Source: a virus (taxonomy: Duplodnaviria > Heunggongvirae > Uroviricota > Caudoviricetes). Taken from it: DNA of 11,696 bases. The first letter of the stretch is position 1; each line of letters starts with the position of its first letter. A model generated the notes under the pieces. That model worked only from the letters and a program-made list of their open reading frames with translations, had not been told where the DNA came from and searched no databases. The position numbers and the translations under genes were made by a program. The DNA lies in IMG/VR virus record IMGVR_UViG_2617270952_000003; one strand, written 5' to 3'. Shown here one piece after another: positions 5,944 through 11,696 of the stretch.

Positions 5944-6407
5944 TGAGCAAAATCCATGAGTTAAAAATTGCACCTGAGTATTTTAACTCTGTGATATCTC
6001 AGGAAAAACGTGCTGAATTTCGTCTCAATGACCGCGATTATTCTAGCGGTGATATTCTCGGGTTGCATGAATGGGAACCGGTAAACAGATATACCGGGAA
6101 ACGTGTATCAGTGAGGGTGACAAACGTTACGGATTTATCTGAATGGGCGGAAAATTATGTGATGCTGAGTTTTCAGTTAATGATGCCAGATGTCCAGTGC
6201 GGTATGTCCCTAATGAACTGGAAAGAGTTAAGCGAGAAGGGGCTTGTTTTCAGAGTTAATCACGAAATTCTACACCCGTTAGGGCTGGCTATTAGATATG
6301 AAACACTTAACAGCGTTTCTGGTAGGGCTTACATCGCTGATGATGGTGTCTGGCAATATTCCGACAAGTTGGTCGCAGATGCTAAAAAAAATGGGTGGTT
6401 AAAATGA
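5943..6407 (+). CDS. DUF3850 / ASCH-like protein (154 aa), P2 orf91-like by position
   Basis: Start overlaps the A stop (TAATG) with a GAGGAG ribosome-binding site. N-terminus MSKIHELKIAPEYFNSVISQEKRAEFRLNDRDY resembles the DUF3850 (ASCH-like) fold family found downstream of A in P2-like phages. Confidence 0.6.
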   Translation: MSKIHELKIAPEYFNSVISQEKRAEFRLNDRDYSSGDILGLHEWEPVNRYTGKRVSVRVTNVTDLSEWAENYVMLSFQLMMPDVQCGMSLMNWKELSEKGLVFRVNHEILHPLGLAIRYETLNSVSGRAYIADDGVWQYSDKLVADAKKNGWLK

Positions 6408-6643
6408 GTCATATGCGAATGATGCCAGTGCCGCCGATACATTCAACGCAAAACATTAAGCTGATGGCCGTCGTACATCGCCTGCAACAAATTATGATTA
6501 ACGAGAATCTGACCCCTGACGAACTGGTCGGGTGTGCCGGTGTCGTCCGGGATAATCACCGCAAATACAGCGATATCAGCAATCCGAAAATTGAGGCGTT
6601 TCGGCCACCAAATATGGCAAAGCCACCACCGCGTCGACCATAG
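6404..6643 (+). CDS. Hypothetical small protein (79 aa)
   Basis: ATGA overlap with the preceding ORF's stop and GGTGG upstream. No recognisable motifs. Occupies the position where P2 carries tin/old. Confidence 0.35.
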   Translation: MSHMRMMPVPPIHSTQNIKLMAVVHRLQQIMINENLTPDELVGCAGVVRDNHRKYSDISNPKIEAFRPPNMAKPPPRRP

Positions 6644-6925
6644 CAAACGCCGCCGGTGCTGAAACTTGTTTTCAGTGCCAGCGGTGTTGAGCAACGAGCC
6701 CCGCGAGACGTTAGCCTGCACCGTAGAGACCACCCCCAACCGGCACGATTAAAGTCGGTTTTATTATGCAATTTTCCCACAATTTCCCGGTTTTTTAGCC
6801 GTGCATGCAACAGGTGCATTTTTTTGCATACGTTGGGGATGCCTGTTCTGGCCGCGCGCCGCCAGAGCAGGCGCGGATCCAGAGTGGTCATGCAACTGCA
6901 TTAAAAACGACCCATAAAGCGGGCA

Positions 6926-6944
6926 GGCGAGGCGGGGTAAGCAT
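6926..6944. other. Putative cos site (19-nt cohesive-end sequence)
   Basis: GGCGAGGCGGGGTAAGCAT matches the P2/186/P4 cohesive end as recalled (GGCGAGGCGGGGAAAGCAC) at 17 of 19 positions. It sits in a GC-rich non-coding stretch (6644-6943). Confidence 0.5.
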
Positions 6945-7015
6945 TGCGCGCGCCTGTCAAAGATATTAAGATTGTCTCAAAATCGATTGATTTTATTGAA
7001 CTAATGGAGCTAGGA

Positions 7016-8572
7016 ATGATTAAGGGTATAGGTCTTCAAAACTTCAGGAGCTTTGTCAACAAAACGTTTATTGATTTAAAACCAATTACAGTATTTGTTG
7101 GTAAGAACAGCAGTGGTAAAAGTTCCCTATTGCGCACATTTCCTTTACTTCGTCAATCTGTAGAAGAAAATACTACTGGCCCAATACTATGGTATGGGAG
7201 ATATGTGGATTTTGGCGATTTTACAGATGTACTTTCCCGAAACTCTGAAAAAAAAGAAATTACGTTTAGTTTTTCACTCTCAATTCCGCCAGAGGTTTCA
7301 CAAAGATATACATATTATCGTTCTACTGATTTAGCAAAGCAACCAACAGATATTGAAGCAGAGTTAACTGTTTACTCTAAAGATAAAAAAACAAAAACGA
7401 AAACGATTAAGCTTATATTGGCTGATTTAACAATATTTATTTCAATGGATGAGAGTAGTAATGTTAAATTACTCATTGAATCAGATGATAAAACAATAGA
7501 GCGTGATGGGATAATAGCTAAAAATCTTGGGCAGTTCATACCAAATCTAATTTTGAAGGGTAAGGAAGACAGTCCTCCTCCAAGCACATCATTCTATTTG
7601 AGACATTCTAGGCATGACAGGGCGTTAGAATTGTCATTTATTGATTCAGCGGCGAAATATATAAAGAAATATTTCCATACTAAATCTGATATAAATCAAG
7701 TGACAGAGGCATTCAAAAGAATTGGCTTTATACCCAAAGCGTACGCTAGTAAATTAGTTGCTTTTCTATTTAAGGAACAAAAAGTTTTTAGTAGAAACTT
7801 TGAATTTCAACATGATGAAATAATGAATGAGTTATATCCATTTATAATTGGATGGAATATTAATAATCTTATAGATATAATAAATACATCCTTGTCAGAT
7901 TCATTCAGAAATGTAAAGTACATAGCTCCACTGCGTGCTACATCAGAAAGATTTTATCGTTTTCAAGATTTACAGGTTAATGAGATAGATCATACTGGTT
8001 CCAATCTTGCAATGCTTTTGAATTCATTAAGACCGGCTGATAAATCAAAATTTGAAGATTGGACAAAGTTAAATTTTGATTTCATTATCAAGGTTGAACA
8101 AAGTGGCTCTCACTTTGCAATTTTAATAAACACCGGTGAAAATAGTGAGAACTATAATGTTAGTGATATGGGGTTTGGTTATTCTCAGGTTTTGCCGATA
8201 GTTACAGCCATTTGGCTTGAGACAGAACGTCGTGCTACCACGGTTAGAAAACCTATAACATTTATCATTGAGCAGCCAGAATTGCATTTACATCCGTCAT
8301 ATCAGCATAATTTAGCAAGTATTTTTGCAAAAGTAGTAACTAAAGCAAAAGAAAATAATGTAGATTTGAAGATAATTTTTGAGACACATAGCCAGACCAT
8401 GATTGAAGCACTTGGTGAATATATTGAGGAAAATGAAAGTCTTTCACAGGATGATATTTCAATACTGGTATTTGAAAAAGATGATAAGCAGCAGACTATA
8501 GTTAAGAAATCTTATTTTGACGAGAATGGTTTCCTAAAAAATTGGCCGGTTGGCTTTTTCTCGGGTAAGTAG
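7016..8572 (+). CDS. OLD-family / AAA_21-type ABC ATPase (518 aa), candidate defense ATPase (PARIS AriA-like or Septu PtuA-like architecture)
   Basis: Walker A GKNSSGKSS at nt 7101-7127. Walker B / D-loop FIIEQPELHLHP at nt 8261-8296. Signature-like SDMGFGYSQ and H-loop-like FETHS. Lys/Thr-rich insert (KDKKTKTKTIK) between the ATPase lobes. ATG at 7016 is preceded by GGAG. The gene is AT-rich relative to the phage backbone. Confidence 0.8.
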   Translation: MIKGIGLQNFRSFVNKTFIDLKPITVFVGKNSSGKSSLLRTFPLLRQSVEENTTGPILWYGRYVDFGDFTDVLSRNSEKKEITFSFSLSIPPEVSQRYTYYRSTDLAKQPTDIEAELTVYSKDKKTKTKTIKLILADLTIFISMDESSNVKLLIESDDKTIERDGIIAKNLGQFIPNLILKGKEDSPPPSTSFYLRHSRHDRALELSFIDSAAKYIKKYFHTKSDINQVTEAFKRIGFIPKAYASKLVAFLFKEQKVFSRNFEFQHDEIMNELYPFIIGWNINNLIDIINTSLSDSFRNVKYIAPLRATSERFYRFQDLQVNEIDHTGSNLAMLLNSLRPADKSKFEDWTKLNFDFIIKVEQSGSHFAILINTGENSENYNVSDMGFGYSQVLPIVTAIWLETERRATTVRKPITFIIEQPELHLHPSYQHNLASIFAKVVTKAKENNVDLKIIFETHSQTMIEALGEYIEENESLSQDDISILVFEKDDKQQTIVKKSYFDENGFLKNWPVGFFSGK

Positions 8573-8574
8573 TT

Positions 8575-9687
8575 ATGTTGATTAATATCGAAAATGCGAC
8601 ACCTGAGAAGGTGCTAAATAACTCATTTGCCATAGCGGTTGAAAATATACTTCGGGCATTCGCTGAACAAAAACACTTGGTTATAGGGGCAAGGGTTTTT
8701 TTTAAAACTATTATCAATGATCAAAGCGGGCTTTATAGCCTTTCATCAAAAAGTTACGCGCAAGAGGCTTTGTCGGGTCTAACAGAGTACTATGCTATCT
8801 TGGATCAGGTCTCATTTTATGTATCTGTCGACTTTAATATTAGTGATAAATCATTTAAATGGGTTCAGATCGGTGAATCTTTTAAATTTGTTTGTGGTCC
8901 ATTGTATTTTAATGACTCGGCACAATTGCAAAAAACGAAAATAGTATGTGAAAATCCTTTGGATTCTGATTTTTTTAAGGTTATAGCGGCTCATTATGCC
9001 GAAGGTATTAACTTATCTCGCTGCGAAATGGGTTTTATCGCTCTAAATGGCGGTGGGGGCAGTACTAAGGATATATTCGAGCGTGCAATTCAAAATAATG
9101 AGATAGTTTTTTGTATTGTGGATAATGACAAAAAACATCCTGGAGCCCCATTCGGAGGTACTTGCTCACATTTTTTGGGCTCACAAATTACTCGCTCAGG
9201 TTTCGTGGAGATTTTAGATGTACATGAAATAGAATCTCTAGTTCCTTTATCGACAATTGAAGATGTATTAAGAAGTCAAAGTCAATTGCAACAAAAAGAA
9301 AAATCTCTCATTTTCTTTAAGCATCTTTGCTCCGTAGATGAATCAGTAAAATTTTATATTGACCATAAAAAAGGTTTTGATTTTAAAACAGCCCTTGAAC
9401 TCGATCGAAAACATGGTGCATATTGGCGTCCGATATTAAAGAAGCTTGATATAAAATATGATTGTGAGTATATCGAATCAAAACGTTGTAGCTGCAACGC
9501 TGCTTGTGTAAGTTATGATGGTTTTGGAGAGAATTTGCTCAGCAATACATTGAAATATATACAAAAGGGAAGTTTAAAAAAATATAATCCTCACCTAACA
9601 CCAGTGCTTTCTGATAAATGGTATAAGTTAGGTAAGAATTTCTTTAGTTGGAGTTGTGGTCCATATAAAAAAGCAAGGGTTGGTTAA
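8575..9687 (+). CDS. TOPRIM-like (DUF4435-like) putative nuclease partner of the ATPase (370 aa)
   Basis: Start is 2 nt after the ATPase stop, suggesting translational coupling. TOPRIM-like motif 1 IVCENPLDSD (Glu at residue 126, nt 8950-8952) and DxD motif CIVDNDKK (nt 9121-9129) about 57 residues later. Gly-rich loop NGGGGS between them. C-terminal Cys cluster CEYIESKRCSCNAAC. The assignment is from motifs only. Confidence 0.55.
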   Translation: MLINIENATPEKVLNNSFAIAVENILRAFAEQKHLVIGARVFFKTIINDQSGLYSLSSKSYAQEALSGLTEYYAILDQVSFYVSVDFNISDKSFKWVQIGESFKFVCGPLYFNDSAQLQKTKIVCENPLDSDFFKVIAAHYAEGINLSRCEMGFIALNGGGGSTKDIFERAIQNNEIVFCIVDNDKKHPGAPFGGTCSHFLGSQITRSGFVEILDVHEIESLVPLSTIEDVLRSQSQLQQKEKSLIFFKHLCSVDESVKFYIDHKKGFDFKTALELDRKHGAYWRPILKKLDIKYDCEYIESKRCSCNAACVSYDGFGENLLSNTLKYIQKGSLKKYNPHLTPVLSDKWYKLGKNFFSWSCGPYKKARVG

Positions 9688-9690
9688 ATT

Positions 9691-9727
9691 ATCACAGCCC
9701 CGATAAAGTGGGCTGTGATGTTATTAT
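9691..9727 (+). terminator. Rho-independent terminator of the cargo operon
   Basis: Inverted repeat ATCACAGCCC / GGGCTGTGAT (9691-9700 and 9710-9719) with a 9-nt loop, followed by a T-rich run (GTTATTATCTG), just after the partner gene stop. Confidence 0.5.
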
Positions 9728-9782
9728 CTGTGGTTCTTGAGTTACAGGGCTGAATATAATGTTGAGATGTTTATTTTGAAAA

Positions 9783-10232
9783 TCAAAGTGAATATTTTTT
9801 AAATCTTATAACTTCCATTTCTAACCAGTTGTTTAGTTCTTTGAACCGTTCCTGTAAAGGAGTTAACTCATTTCGGACAAACACTTGTGCAGCTTTTACA
9901 ACATCACCAAAACCGCCAACATTGTTAGGCATAATTCCCATCATTTGTGGTGGTACCCTATGAGCACTCAACAAATCTTCTGCACTAACCTTTTTGATAT
10001 TGAAAAAATCATCTTTCGTGGCGACTTCACTCAACGGCACAATCTTGATGCCATCCGGTTTGCCGTTGGGCGCGTAGAAAAACAAGTTTTTGAAATTCCC
10101 GAGTCCTTTCGAGTCACGCATCGCGTTGCGGAGCGACTCGACGTCGGTACACAGCCTCAACGGGAGCGGCTTCACGACGGGCTTAGAGCTTGAGGTTAAG
10201 GTTTCTGATGTGGAGTATGAAAGCGAGGAAGT
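9783..10232 (-). pseudogene. Q: Portal protein gene fragment (3' portion only), P2 Q-like, truncated
   Basis: Minus-strand frame encodes ...LLSAHRVPPQMMGIMPNNVGGFGDVVKAAQVFVRNELTPLQERF..., which looks like the conserved C-terminal region of PBSX/P2-family portals. Only about 130-150 codons remain (P2 Q is about 344 aa). The frame is closed by a stop at 10233-10235 and ogr occupies the upstream space. Confidence 0.6.
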
Positions 10233-10316
10233 TTAACGGCGTGTGTTGTTTATGTGTTTGTTTTATAAGTAAAAATTAGTAAAATTAACACATTGAATAC
10301 GCCGGAGACCCTCATC

Positions 10317-10538
10317 ATGTTTCATTGTCCGAAATGCCATCATGCCGCCCACGCCCGCACGAGTCGCTATTTTACTGATACCACAAAAGAGCGGTATCAC
10401 CAGTGCACAAACATTAACTGCAGCTGCACGTTTGTGACCACTGAAACAGTCGAGCGTTTTATCGTGTCGCCGGGGGAAGTAGTACCCGCGCCGCCGCATC
10501 CGACATCATCAGGTCAGCAACAAATTCACTGGATGTGA
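10317..10538 (+). CDS. ogr: Ogr-family zinc-finger late-gene transcriptional activator (73 aa)
   Basis: MFHCPKCHHAAHARTSRYFTDTTKERYHQCTNINCSCTF carries the C-x2-C...C-x4-C zinc-finger signature of P2 Ogr / P4 Delta. GGAGA ribosome-binding site 8 nt upstream. Confidence 0.9.
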   Translation: MFHCPKCHHAAHARTSRYFTDTTKERYHQCTNINCSCTFVTTETVERFIVSPGEVVPAPPHPTSSGQQQIHWM

Positions 10539-10844: not shown

Positions 10845-11696
10845 TTGAACAATATCCCCATATCTACTCAATGGACTTTAGACGCTACGGGTGAAGTTGG
10901 ACGCTCATCAGTAAATTCTGTTTATATGATTATATGTCCTGCGACAGGCTCGAAAGGATCTGGTTTTTTAATAGATAATGGGTTAATAGTAACGAACGAG
11001 CATGTTATCACTGGATGCTCTACAAATCAGATTTTCGCAATTTCAGCTTATGGACAGAAGATTCCAATTTCTCAAAAATGGATAGATTCTGATCGCGATT
11101 TAGCTGTGCTGAGACCTGCCATTACCCAGACTGGTGGGCTAAGTATTGTTAAGGATAATGATCTTAAAGTTGGTGAATCAGTAACAACTTGGGGATACCC
11201 ATTAGGATACAACGGTCCTGCACCGTTACTATCCGTTGGTTATCTAGCAGGATTTAACTCATACCAAACCGCCAAGGGACAAAAAAAACATCTAGTGGTA
11301 AATGGGGCATTTAACTCAGGAAATTCTGGTGGAGCTCTTTTAAAAGCTTCAGATAATAAAGTAATAGGTATTGTAGTGAGTAAGCATGCTCCTATCAGTC
11401 AATACCATCAATCAGCTATTGAAGCTTTGTCTGAAAATATGAGTGGCGTCACCTATACCGCTACTAATGACGCTGGAGAAACTAAAAGTTTTGTAGAATC
11501 TCAAATTGTAGCAGAATTATTGATTCATATGAGAAGTCTAACTCAAGTTATGATTGGAGAAGCAATTGCAGCAGAGGAATTACTTTCGATGCTTAGCGAA
11601 ATTGACTTGAGTCCACCACAATCTATGTCAAGAAATGCCTTATGTCATTGCGGGAGTGGAAAACGCTTCAAAGAATGTCATGGAAAGATATCCTAG
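10845..11696 (+). CDS. Trypsin-like (S1/Trypsin_2) serine protease with C-terminal SEC-C zinc-binding motif (283 aa)
   Basis: Catalytic triad contexts TNEHV (His), DRDLAVL (Asp) and GNSGGAL (Ser). C-terminal CHCGSGKRFKECHG is a SEC-C motif. TTG start with AAGGAG 7 nt upstream. AT-rich. The ORF ends exactly at the window edge (TAG at 11694-11696). Confidence 0.7.
   Translation: MNNIPISTQWTLDATGEVGRSSVNSVYMIICPATGSKGSGFLIDNGLIVTNEHVITGCSTNQIFAISAYGQKIPISQKWIDSDRDLAVLRPAITQTGGLSIVKDNDLKVGESVTTWGYPLGYNGPAPLLSVGYLAGFNSYQTAKGQKKHLVVNGAFNSGNSGGALLKASDNKVIGIVVSKHAPISQYHQSAIEALSENMSGVTYTATNDAGETKSFVESQIVAELLIHMRSLTQVMIGEAIAAEELLSMLSEIDLSPPQSMSRNALCHCGSGKRFKECHGKIS

Follow-up and report, generated by a model that had tools for sequence, protein, structure and literature searches.

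An 11,696-nt stretch of DNA from a tailed-phage record (IMG/VR record IMGVR_UViG_2617270952_000003, Caudoviricetes), which is referred to in its whole length as the window, contains a cassette of two genes, A and B, coding for an ATPase and a putative Toprim nuclease. The cassette is most probably (at roughly 0.7) an autonomous two-gene anti-phage system, in which an ATPase of the NsnB type is paired with an OLD-like Toprim effector and which is carried as cargo by a P2-like prophage. Considered by itself, a role of the cassette in defence is rated as highly likely, and the specific mechanism that is proposed below is given even odds.

Gene A starts with an ATG and encodes 518 amino acids, and gene B also starts with an ATG and encodes 370 amino acids; both are open reading frames (ORFs) read from the window sequence. 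The TAG stop codon of ORF A (8570-8572) and the ATG of ORF B (8575) are separated by a 2-nt gap. An earlier note, which was made from the letters of the sequence, had described the locus as a candidate anti-phage system consisting of an ATPase and a Toprim-like protein, and this description is borne out by the Pfam ATPase domains of protein A as well as by the fold and the conserved acidic residues of protein B. The narrow gap between the genes, the Walker A sequence GKNSSGKS and the DND motif at residues 183-185, all of which had been pointed out before, could also be confirmed. The features of the cassette are as follows:

6945-7015, plus strand: upstream untranslated region with the ribosome-binding site GGAG at 7005-7008
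7016-8572, plus strand: gene A, NsnB-type (OLD-ABC) ATPase of 518 aa with a C-terminal DUF3696 tail
7100-7123, plus strand: Walker A GKNSSGKS, residues 29-36, read from the sequence
8270-8296, plus strand: Walker B region EQPELHLHP, residues 419-427, identical in 11 of the 11 ATPases examined
8444-8560, plus strand: DUF3696 C-terminal tail with the NWPxGF motif, residues 477-515, found with Pfam and kept in all partner ATPases
8575-9687, plus strand: gene B, predicted effector of 370 aa, whose N-terminal alpha/beta domain is followed by a Toprim domain of the OLD type and by a helical C-terminal region rich in Cys
8575-8934, plus strand: residues 1-120 of B, an alpha/beta (Rossmann-like) domain that is proposed to act as an adaptor to the ATPase
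8950-9234, plus strand: putative Toprim catalytic core with E126 and D130 (8950-8964), D183-N-D185 (9121-9129) and H217-E-I-E220 (9223-9234)
9367-9369, plus strand: K265 of the D263-x-K265-x-G267 motif, candidate counterpart of BpOLD K562 by residue order
9469-9507, plus strand: Cys-rich loop with C299, C305, C307 and C311, to which C361 (9655-9657) is added, by conservation
9690-9720, no strand assigned: stem-loop of 10-12 bp that separates gene B from the remnant of the convergent portal gene

The ATPase and its predicted Toprim partner

Protein A matches Pfam AAA_15 over its full length (2.4e-27, 96.9 bits) and AAA_21 (7e-19, 69.4 bits), and residues 477-515 match DUF3696 with 30.8 bits against a cutoff of 22 (3.6e-7). 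Among the PADLOC models, NsnB of the Menshen system ranks first (3.7e-55), followed by PDC-M55A (6.9e-46), HEC-03B (1.4e-37) and the AriA model of PARIS (3.1e-31). The latter match is regarded as generic because the 373 positions spanned by the AriA model are those of Pfam AAA_15. By sequence, protein A is an OLD-type ABC ATPase that is closest to Menshen NsnB and not specifically an AriA. An alignment of six diverse ATPases, which are 33-79% identical to protein A, revealed that the Walker A residues G29, N31, S32, G34, K35 and S36 are invariant, and the same is true for R307 at the Q-loop position, G386-x-G388 at the signature position, H458 and the tail motif N/H-W510-P-x-G513-F. Residues ~95-290, which form the ABC insert region, are hypervariable in this alignment. 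In the Walker B region, E-Q (E419-Q420) is found in place of the usual D-E. Three peculiarities have been described for NsnB, namely an Arg instead of the Q-loop Gln, GxG instead of SGG and a modified Walker B (E-N) (PMC12065111), and protein A displays all three of them with R307, G386/G388 and its E-Q Walker B. The protein probably assembles as a dimer of dimers. In the AlphaFold3 models of Menshen, the N-terminal domain of NsnC is located between the two DUF3696 tails of an NsnB dimer, and by analogy, the DUF3696 tail of protein A is predicted to be the docking site for protein B.

For protein B, no match was found to any Pfam, NCBIfam or PHROG family, and Pfam yielded none even at E-values of up to 1. 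Thus, of the families for which the earlier note had proposed profile searches of both proteins, AAA_15 and AAA_21 are present in A, and no Pfam family, DUF4435 included, is matched by B. Its only PADLOC match is a weak one to PDC-M55B (2.1e-4, 19.2 bits), which is confined to the Toprim core (residues 123-281). The family to which protein B belongs is nevertheless large: a profile built from 25 relatives retrieves 1,860 representatives at 50% identity with E-values of up to 1e-3 and 1,409 with E-values of up to 1e-10, and nearly all of the best 150 matches listed are full-length proteins of ~370 aa.

Conservation within the family was counted over 73 sequences, which are 19-71% identical to protein B. 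Five columns, E126, G161, D183, D185 and E220, are invariant, and D130, G159, G160, C180, P189, G194, T196, E218 and P224 are conserved in at least 90% of the sequences, as are D263, K265, G267, W284, C299, C305, C311, W349, G353, W359 and C361 in the C-terminal part. The active site of BpOLD consists of E400, E404, D455, D457, T506, E508 and K562, the last of which is located in a helical domain following the Toprim core. In protein B, the residues E126, D130, D183, D185, E218, E220 and K265 follow each other in the BpOLD order and with similar spacing, and their equivalence, including that of K265 and K562, is suggested by this order and spacing rather than by superposition. Comparison of structures gave the C-terminal region of a Burkholderia OLD as the best match for protein B (score 7.4, 159 positions), followed by a Thermus OLD (6.4, 154), AriB (6.0, 157) and the Retron Eco2 protein (6.0, 167). 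Protein B thereby combines a Toprim fold like that of the OLD family with the corresponding active-site residues: the Glu is invariant, and the DxD, two further acidic residues and the Lys follow it. In the supplement of DefensePredictor, the cluster containing WP_000906719.1, the RefSeq accession for protein B, is reported to match the YbjD ATPase_TOPRIM family in an HH comparison (95.4%) over 32% of its length, which provides independent support for a Toprim-like protein. The Toprim-like nature of B is supported by its modelled fold and its conserved residues, and the protein is predicted to be a metal-dependent Toprim nuclease that resembles the OLD family.

The Toprim core of protein B is flanked by two further parts. 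Residues 1-120 form a separate domain, which is modelled with a pLDDT (predicted local distance difference test) of 96.2 when taken alone; M1 is the only invariant residue in this domain, and it contains no conserved catalytic residues. The C-terminal third is helical, and the Cys-rich loop within it is modelled with low confidence (pLDDT 57-63). This loop is absent from the B homologue of a Pseudomonas Pf phage and is therefore considered to be an insertion; together with C361, it could possibly form a zinc site.

Conservation of the pair and its prophage location

The two genes occur together far outside of E. coli. In 15 of 15 other loci, a homologue of A is located directly upstream of a homologue of B, with a spacing that ranges from an 11-nt overlap to a 48-nt gap. 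The loci comprise five genome loci, which were obtained in a search with a closer alignment of B, and contigs encoding homologues; they come from Pectobacterium, Morganella, metagenome-assembled genomes of Desulfuromonadales and Arcobacteraceae, Vibrio sinensis, Thiothrix, the cyanobacterium Geitlerinema, six metagenomic or genome contigs and Pseudomonas phage 62-2, and thus span several bacterial phyla. Every complete partner ATPase examined carries the Walker A motif, EQPELHLHP and the NWPxGF tail. Both proteins diverge in step, with identities of the A and B homologues to the window proteins of, for example, 79/70%, 37/30%, 33/24% and 33/27%. The neighbouring genes vary from locus to locus and include transposases, BrnT/BrnA, an integrase fragment, an HNH protein and a phage repressor with an excisionase. 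A DUF262/ParB protein, the NsnA component of Menshen, is encoded neither in the window nor by the called neighbours of the other loci, and no ORF with the DUF262 motif DGxQR is present in the three loci L002, L004 and L005.

Three of these loci deserve a separate description. In Morganella psychrotolerans (L003, 4436-7071), the cassette is decayed and both genes are fragmented. The ATPase gene of Thiothrix unzii (L007, 3338-7101) is split by HTH/DDE transposase genes of insertion sequences, and its B gene is intact. Pseudomonas phage 62-2 (L017, OR621022.1, 2399-5035), a Pf-like filamentous phage, encodes the pair at 33%/27% identity beside repressor and excisionase genes, and the depositors labelled the two products 'DNA double-strand break repair rad50 ATPase' and 'putative OLD family nuclease'.

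The 2,784-bp stretch containing the cassette is 100% identical to a part of the chromosome of E. coli WP2-S18-ESBL-07 and was found in 39 of 5,426 complete E. coli genomes, where it is chromosomal every time and present in one copy per genome. In E. coli WP2-S18-ESBL-07, it lies within a P2-like prophage adjoining yegR and is flanked on one side by the gene for the replication endonuclease gpA, a DUF3850 gene and a small ORF, and on the opposite side by the portal gene. The same arrangement is seen upstream of the cassette in the window, where Phage_GPA and DUF3850/ASCH were confirmed by Pfam and small ORFs have no family. At 6926-6944, a cos-like site, GGCGAGGCGGGGTAAGCAT, matches over 19 nt and with 2 mismatches the sequence GGCGAGGCGGGGAAAGCAC, for which no match is expected by chance. 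We take GGCGAGGCGGGGAAAGCAC to be the cohesive end of P2/P4, with the published P4 cos region as a source. Similarity to sequenced P2/186-like phages ends at ~6951, directly past the cos-like site; the cassette is therefore seen as cargo inserted between cos and gene Q, and judged from these sequence comparisons, it is located there rather than between gpA and cos. The interval corresponds to the gpA-gpQ hotspot of P2-like prophages, which holds old/tin and many other defence systems (Rousset et al. 2022), and the placement in the old/tin slot of a P2-like prophage that had been assumed from the letters alone is correct. The region 7000-9800 is a low-GC island, with a GC content of ~0.32 (range 0.30-0.37) compared with 0.44-0.57 in the phage genes upstream.

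Both ends of the cassette required a closer definition. The earlier note had let the feature begin at position 6944, which is merely the first TTG of the open frame of ORF A and coincides with the last base of the cos-like site. The gene starts at the ATG at 7016 instead, because GGAG (7005-7008) is located 6 nt 5' of this codon and because the same start is used in RefSeq and in all homologues. The terminator that had been ascribed to the pair is confirmed in part: the stem-loop at 9690-9720 is strong (-19.5 kcal/mol, z -4.5), and 0 of 200 shuffled sequences fold equally well; however, its U-tract is weak and it was not picked up by a consensus terminator scan. It is a probable bidirectional terminator.

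Several observations concern the surrounding prophage. Small ORFs without a family match lie between the DUF3850 gene and cos at 6395-6643 (plus strand), 6656-6904 (plus strand) and 6556-6891 (minus strand). The region 6644-6951 is ~89% identical to the cos-proximal end of P2-like phages of Yersinia and Salmonella and is for this reason probably packaging-signal DNA and not coding. The prophage of the window is a deletion derivative, in which the interior of the portal gene is joined to the last 91 nt of the late-control gene D at ~10146-10150 through a 5-bp microhomology (GGTAC). The portal gene has been reduced to its C-terminal 130 codons (9783-10175, minus strand), and ~21.5 kb with the structural genes for head, tail and lysis have been lost. 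This deletion junction is absent from all 5,426 complete E. coli genomes. The cassette has thus been retained in a prophage that is no longer able to form particles. A gene of low GC content (~0.38; 10845-11696, plus strand) follows an ogr-like zinc-finger gene (10293-10538) on the attR side, where the prophage ends. Its 283-aa product is a trypsin-like peptidase (Trypsin_2, 1e-19) that carries a SEC-C motif (3.6e-7) at its C-terminus, and the gene is possibly a second piece of cargo or a further candidate for a role in defence.

The cassette has been listed before, in three computational surveys. Rousset et al. 2022 give precisely this pair as system #36 ('AAA_15/AAA_21/AAA_23', 105 occurrences) in their Table S5B, and the cluster of protein B (WP_000906719.1) is classified by DefensePredictor as a 'predicted novel defense gene' with a log-odds score of 12.75, where it is listed as predicted only; in addition, the cassette is related to the candidate system PDC-M55 of PADLOC. 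In the text of a 2026 paper that deals with how the defence hotspots of P2/P4 evolved, there is no mention of Menshen or PDC. The cassette has therefore been noticed computationally, it is neither validated nor named, and the family of its effector is undescribed in domain databases.

Proposed mechanism and rival explanations

If the cassette acts in defence, A and B would be co-translated, and protein A would form a dimer or tetramer whose paired DUF3696 tails clamp the N-terminal alpha/beta domain of protein B, thereby holding the nuclease in check. The hypervariable insert of A (residues ~95-290) is the candidate region for the detection of a phage product or of phage DNA; the ATPase itself is proposed to be the sensor because there is no separate sensor protein such as NsnA. 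Binding or hydrolysis of ATP might then release or activate protein B, whose putative two-metal Toprim site would cut nucleic acid and block phage growth, probably at the expense of the infected cell. The substrate of OLD and GajA is DNA and that of AriB is tRNA, and protein B could act on either of them.

Several results weigh against an autonomous defence system with an OLD-like effector. A Foldseek search of protein B against the PDB gave nothing significant, with the retron Eco2 protein as the best match (E 0.036) followed by GajA, and the profile of the B family retrieved no PDB sequence below E 0.18, the matches at this level being spurious. In an hhalign comparison, the same profile reached a probability of 0.6% with AriB of E. 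coli B185, and no sequence profile ties protein B to DUF4435, DUF4276 or RloB, with DUF4435 being present in 0 of 73 family members. The N-terminal domain of B has generic Rossmann-like structural neighbours only (Z of at most 5.3), and there is no PIN domain among the 60 best. A sigma-70 scan detected no promoter site between the cos-like site and the ATG at 7016. On the functional side, the table in which Rousset et al. 2022 give the systems that they cloned and tested does not contain the cassette sequences, the literature contains no experimental report that we could find of phage resistance conferred by the cassette or any member of the B family, and HEC-01, a related Toprim candidate, gave no protection when it was tested.

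These points have to be considered together with three other explanations of the pair. A divergent PARIS system, in which an Ocr-like anti-restriction trigger would lead to the release of a tRNA-cleaving Toprim dimer, is very improbable: protein B and its family lack DUF4435, the comparison with AriB was null, the AriA match of protein A is generic and far exceeded by those to NsnB, PDC-M55A and HEC-03B, and AriA has no DUF3696 tail and carries AriB docked on its dimer interface. The similarity of A to NsnB, including the unusual motifs and the DUF3696 tail, would also be expected if the cassette were a Menshen system that has lost NsnA and is now inactive or reliant on a ParB/DUF262 protein encoded elsewhere, and the NsnC layout of protein B, together with the occurrence of Toprim effectors in NsnC, fits this idea as well. 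It is nevertheless considered unlikely, as the DUF262/ParB gene is missing from the window, no DUF262 gene is found among the called neighbours elsewhere and no ORF with DGxQR in the three loci scanned for it, the N-terminal domain of B retrieved no PIN folds, and HEC-03, a two-gene relative, functions without NsnA. Moreover, the two-gene form is conserved in all 15 loci across phyla with intact catalytic motifs, which argues for selection on an autonomous pair.

RecF and RecR likewise pair an ABC ATPase with a Toprim protein that has a Cys4 motif, and the cassette could accordingly be read as a RecF/RecR-like repair or recombination module for phage replication; the 'rad50 ATPase' label given by the depositors to the homologous ATPase of Pseudomonas phage 62-2 points in the same direction. 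As a further variant without a defence function, a selfish addiction module of the toxin-antitoxin type might persist, as the cassette does, in a prophage stripped of all structural genes. A role of either kind outside defence is judged improbable.

An autonomous defence system is thus preferred. OLD-type ABC ATPases combined with nucleases, as in OLD, Gabija, PARIS, Septu, Menshen, HEC-03 and WonAB, are among the commonest designs of bacterial immunity, and the way in which such ATPases sense infection is understood for few systems only. Tentatively, and at slightly less than even odds, the cassette may represent a widespread unnamed defence family of at least ~1,400 clusters at 50% identity, in which a Menshen-type ATPase without NsnA senses by itself through its hypervariable insert and controls a new branch of OLD-like Toprim proteins with an adaptor and a Cys4 module, possibly binding zinc; instead of DNA, such proteins might target RNA or tRNA. 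If this is true, the DUF3696-tailed NsnB ATPase would act as a portable 'socket'. Effectors that are unrelated to one another, namely PIN in HEC-03, BECR and others in Menshen, and Toprim in the cassette, would plug into it via an adaptor at their N-terminus, whether or not a sensor is encoded upstream. The cassette is a compact form of the Menshen ATPase that is native to E. coli, has no separate sensor and is paired with a predicted effector from a large family, and it would provide a simple system to study how an NsnB ATPase and its DUF3696 tail control an effector. Its validation would cover a family that occurs in many phyla as well as in two groups of temperate phages that are not related to each other. 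The practical gain is modest, since the cassette had been flagged computationally before and the remaining step is experimental rather than one of discovery.

Comparison with known systems

Among the closest known relatives of the cassette is the PADLOC candidate PDC-M55, a name that was found in no paper in a literature search. Protein A matches PDC-M55A, and 52 of the 73 members of the B family match PDC-M55B, the best of them with 6.4e-13. However, the PDC-M55B profile is shorter (315 positions), and the N-terminal domain and the Cys-rich C-terminal region of protein B are not shared. By these profile comparisons, the cassette is probably a sister of PDC-M55.

The Menshen system consists of NsnA, NsnB and NsnC (Millman 2022; Li et al. 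2025, PMC12065111). Protein A has the features of NsnB, namely NsnB as the best PADLOC match, DUF3696, the Arg, the GxG and the modified Walker B. NsnC is composed of an N-terminal domain, which resembles an inactive PIN domain, and a C-terminal effector, which can be a BECR, a DUF4276 or RloB Toprim, a PLD or another domain, and the layout of protein B with a variable N-terminal alpha/beta domain and a predicted nuclease parallels this arrangement. In contrast to Menshen, where NsnA (ParB-DUF262 and ParBDB) is normally encoded immediately upstream of NsnB, the window has gpA, DUF3850/ASCH and small ORFs upstream, and the cos-like site separates these genes from gene A. Furthermore, protein B has no match to DUF4276 or RloB in its Toprim domain, and its N-terminal domain is not demonstrably PIN-like. 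As NsnA was found neither in the window nor at the related loci, an assignment to canonical Menshen was rejected.

The PARIS detection rule of Rousset et al. 2022 demands an AriA with at least 32 bits for AAA_15 or at least 27 bits for AAA_21 and an adjacent AriB with at least 27 bits for DUF4435 (PF14491). Protein A passes the AriA part with 96.9 and 69.4 bits, a feature generic to all OLD-ABC ATPases, whereas protein B fails the AriB part. AriB is bound at the ATPase dimer interface of AriA and not via a C-terminal tail, and the docking mode of the cassette is likely to be different. Membership in PARIS was rejected on the grounds of the missing DUF4435 match, the null hhalign comparison with AriB and the position of the ATPase in another clade, that of NsnB. 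The earlier description of the pair as resembling PARIS without being canonical holds, and PARIS is itself a validated system with the same logic. As a correction, the nearest relatives of the ATPase are NsnB, PDC-M55A and HEC-03 and not AriA.

The OLD family (P2 Old, BpOLD and TsOLD) and GajA of Gabija provide the best structural matches to protein B and share the same ordered catalytic residues, and P2 old occupies the same prophage slot as the cassette. In these proteins, however, ATPase and Toprim are part of one polypeptide, whereas the cassette encodes them separately and adds a proposed adaptor domain and a Cys-rich insertion, and the sequence similarity to B is undetectable with Pfam or PDB profiles. 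The window and all 15 other loci contain two separate complete ORFs and not a single-polypeptide OLD of Class 1 or 2. A frameshifted or split old gene was accordingly rejected, as had been argued in the earlier note: neither ORF is truncated, and other loci have kept the two-gene form as well.

Two validated systems are close to the cassette in their design. HEC-03, both genes of which are required (Payne et al. 2024), has a related ATPase, HEC-03B, and likewise consists of two genes without a separate sensor, but its effector is a VapC-like PIN ribonuclease instead of a Toprim protein. WonAB of the Vibrio cholerae WASA-1 prophage resembles the cassette by architecture, being a prophage-borne OLD-ABC ATPase with a nuclease that is predicted to dock on dimerised C-terminal extensions; in this system, the action of the nuclease requires the ATPase and the outcome is abortive infection. 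The nuclease of WonAB belongs to the PD-(D/E)xK type, whereas that of the cassette is predicted to be a Toprim. Since both HEC-03 and WonAB have been validated, the two-gene logic that is proposed for the cassette appears to be workable.

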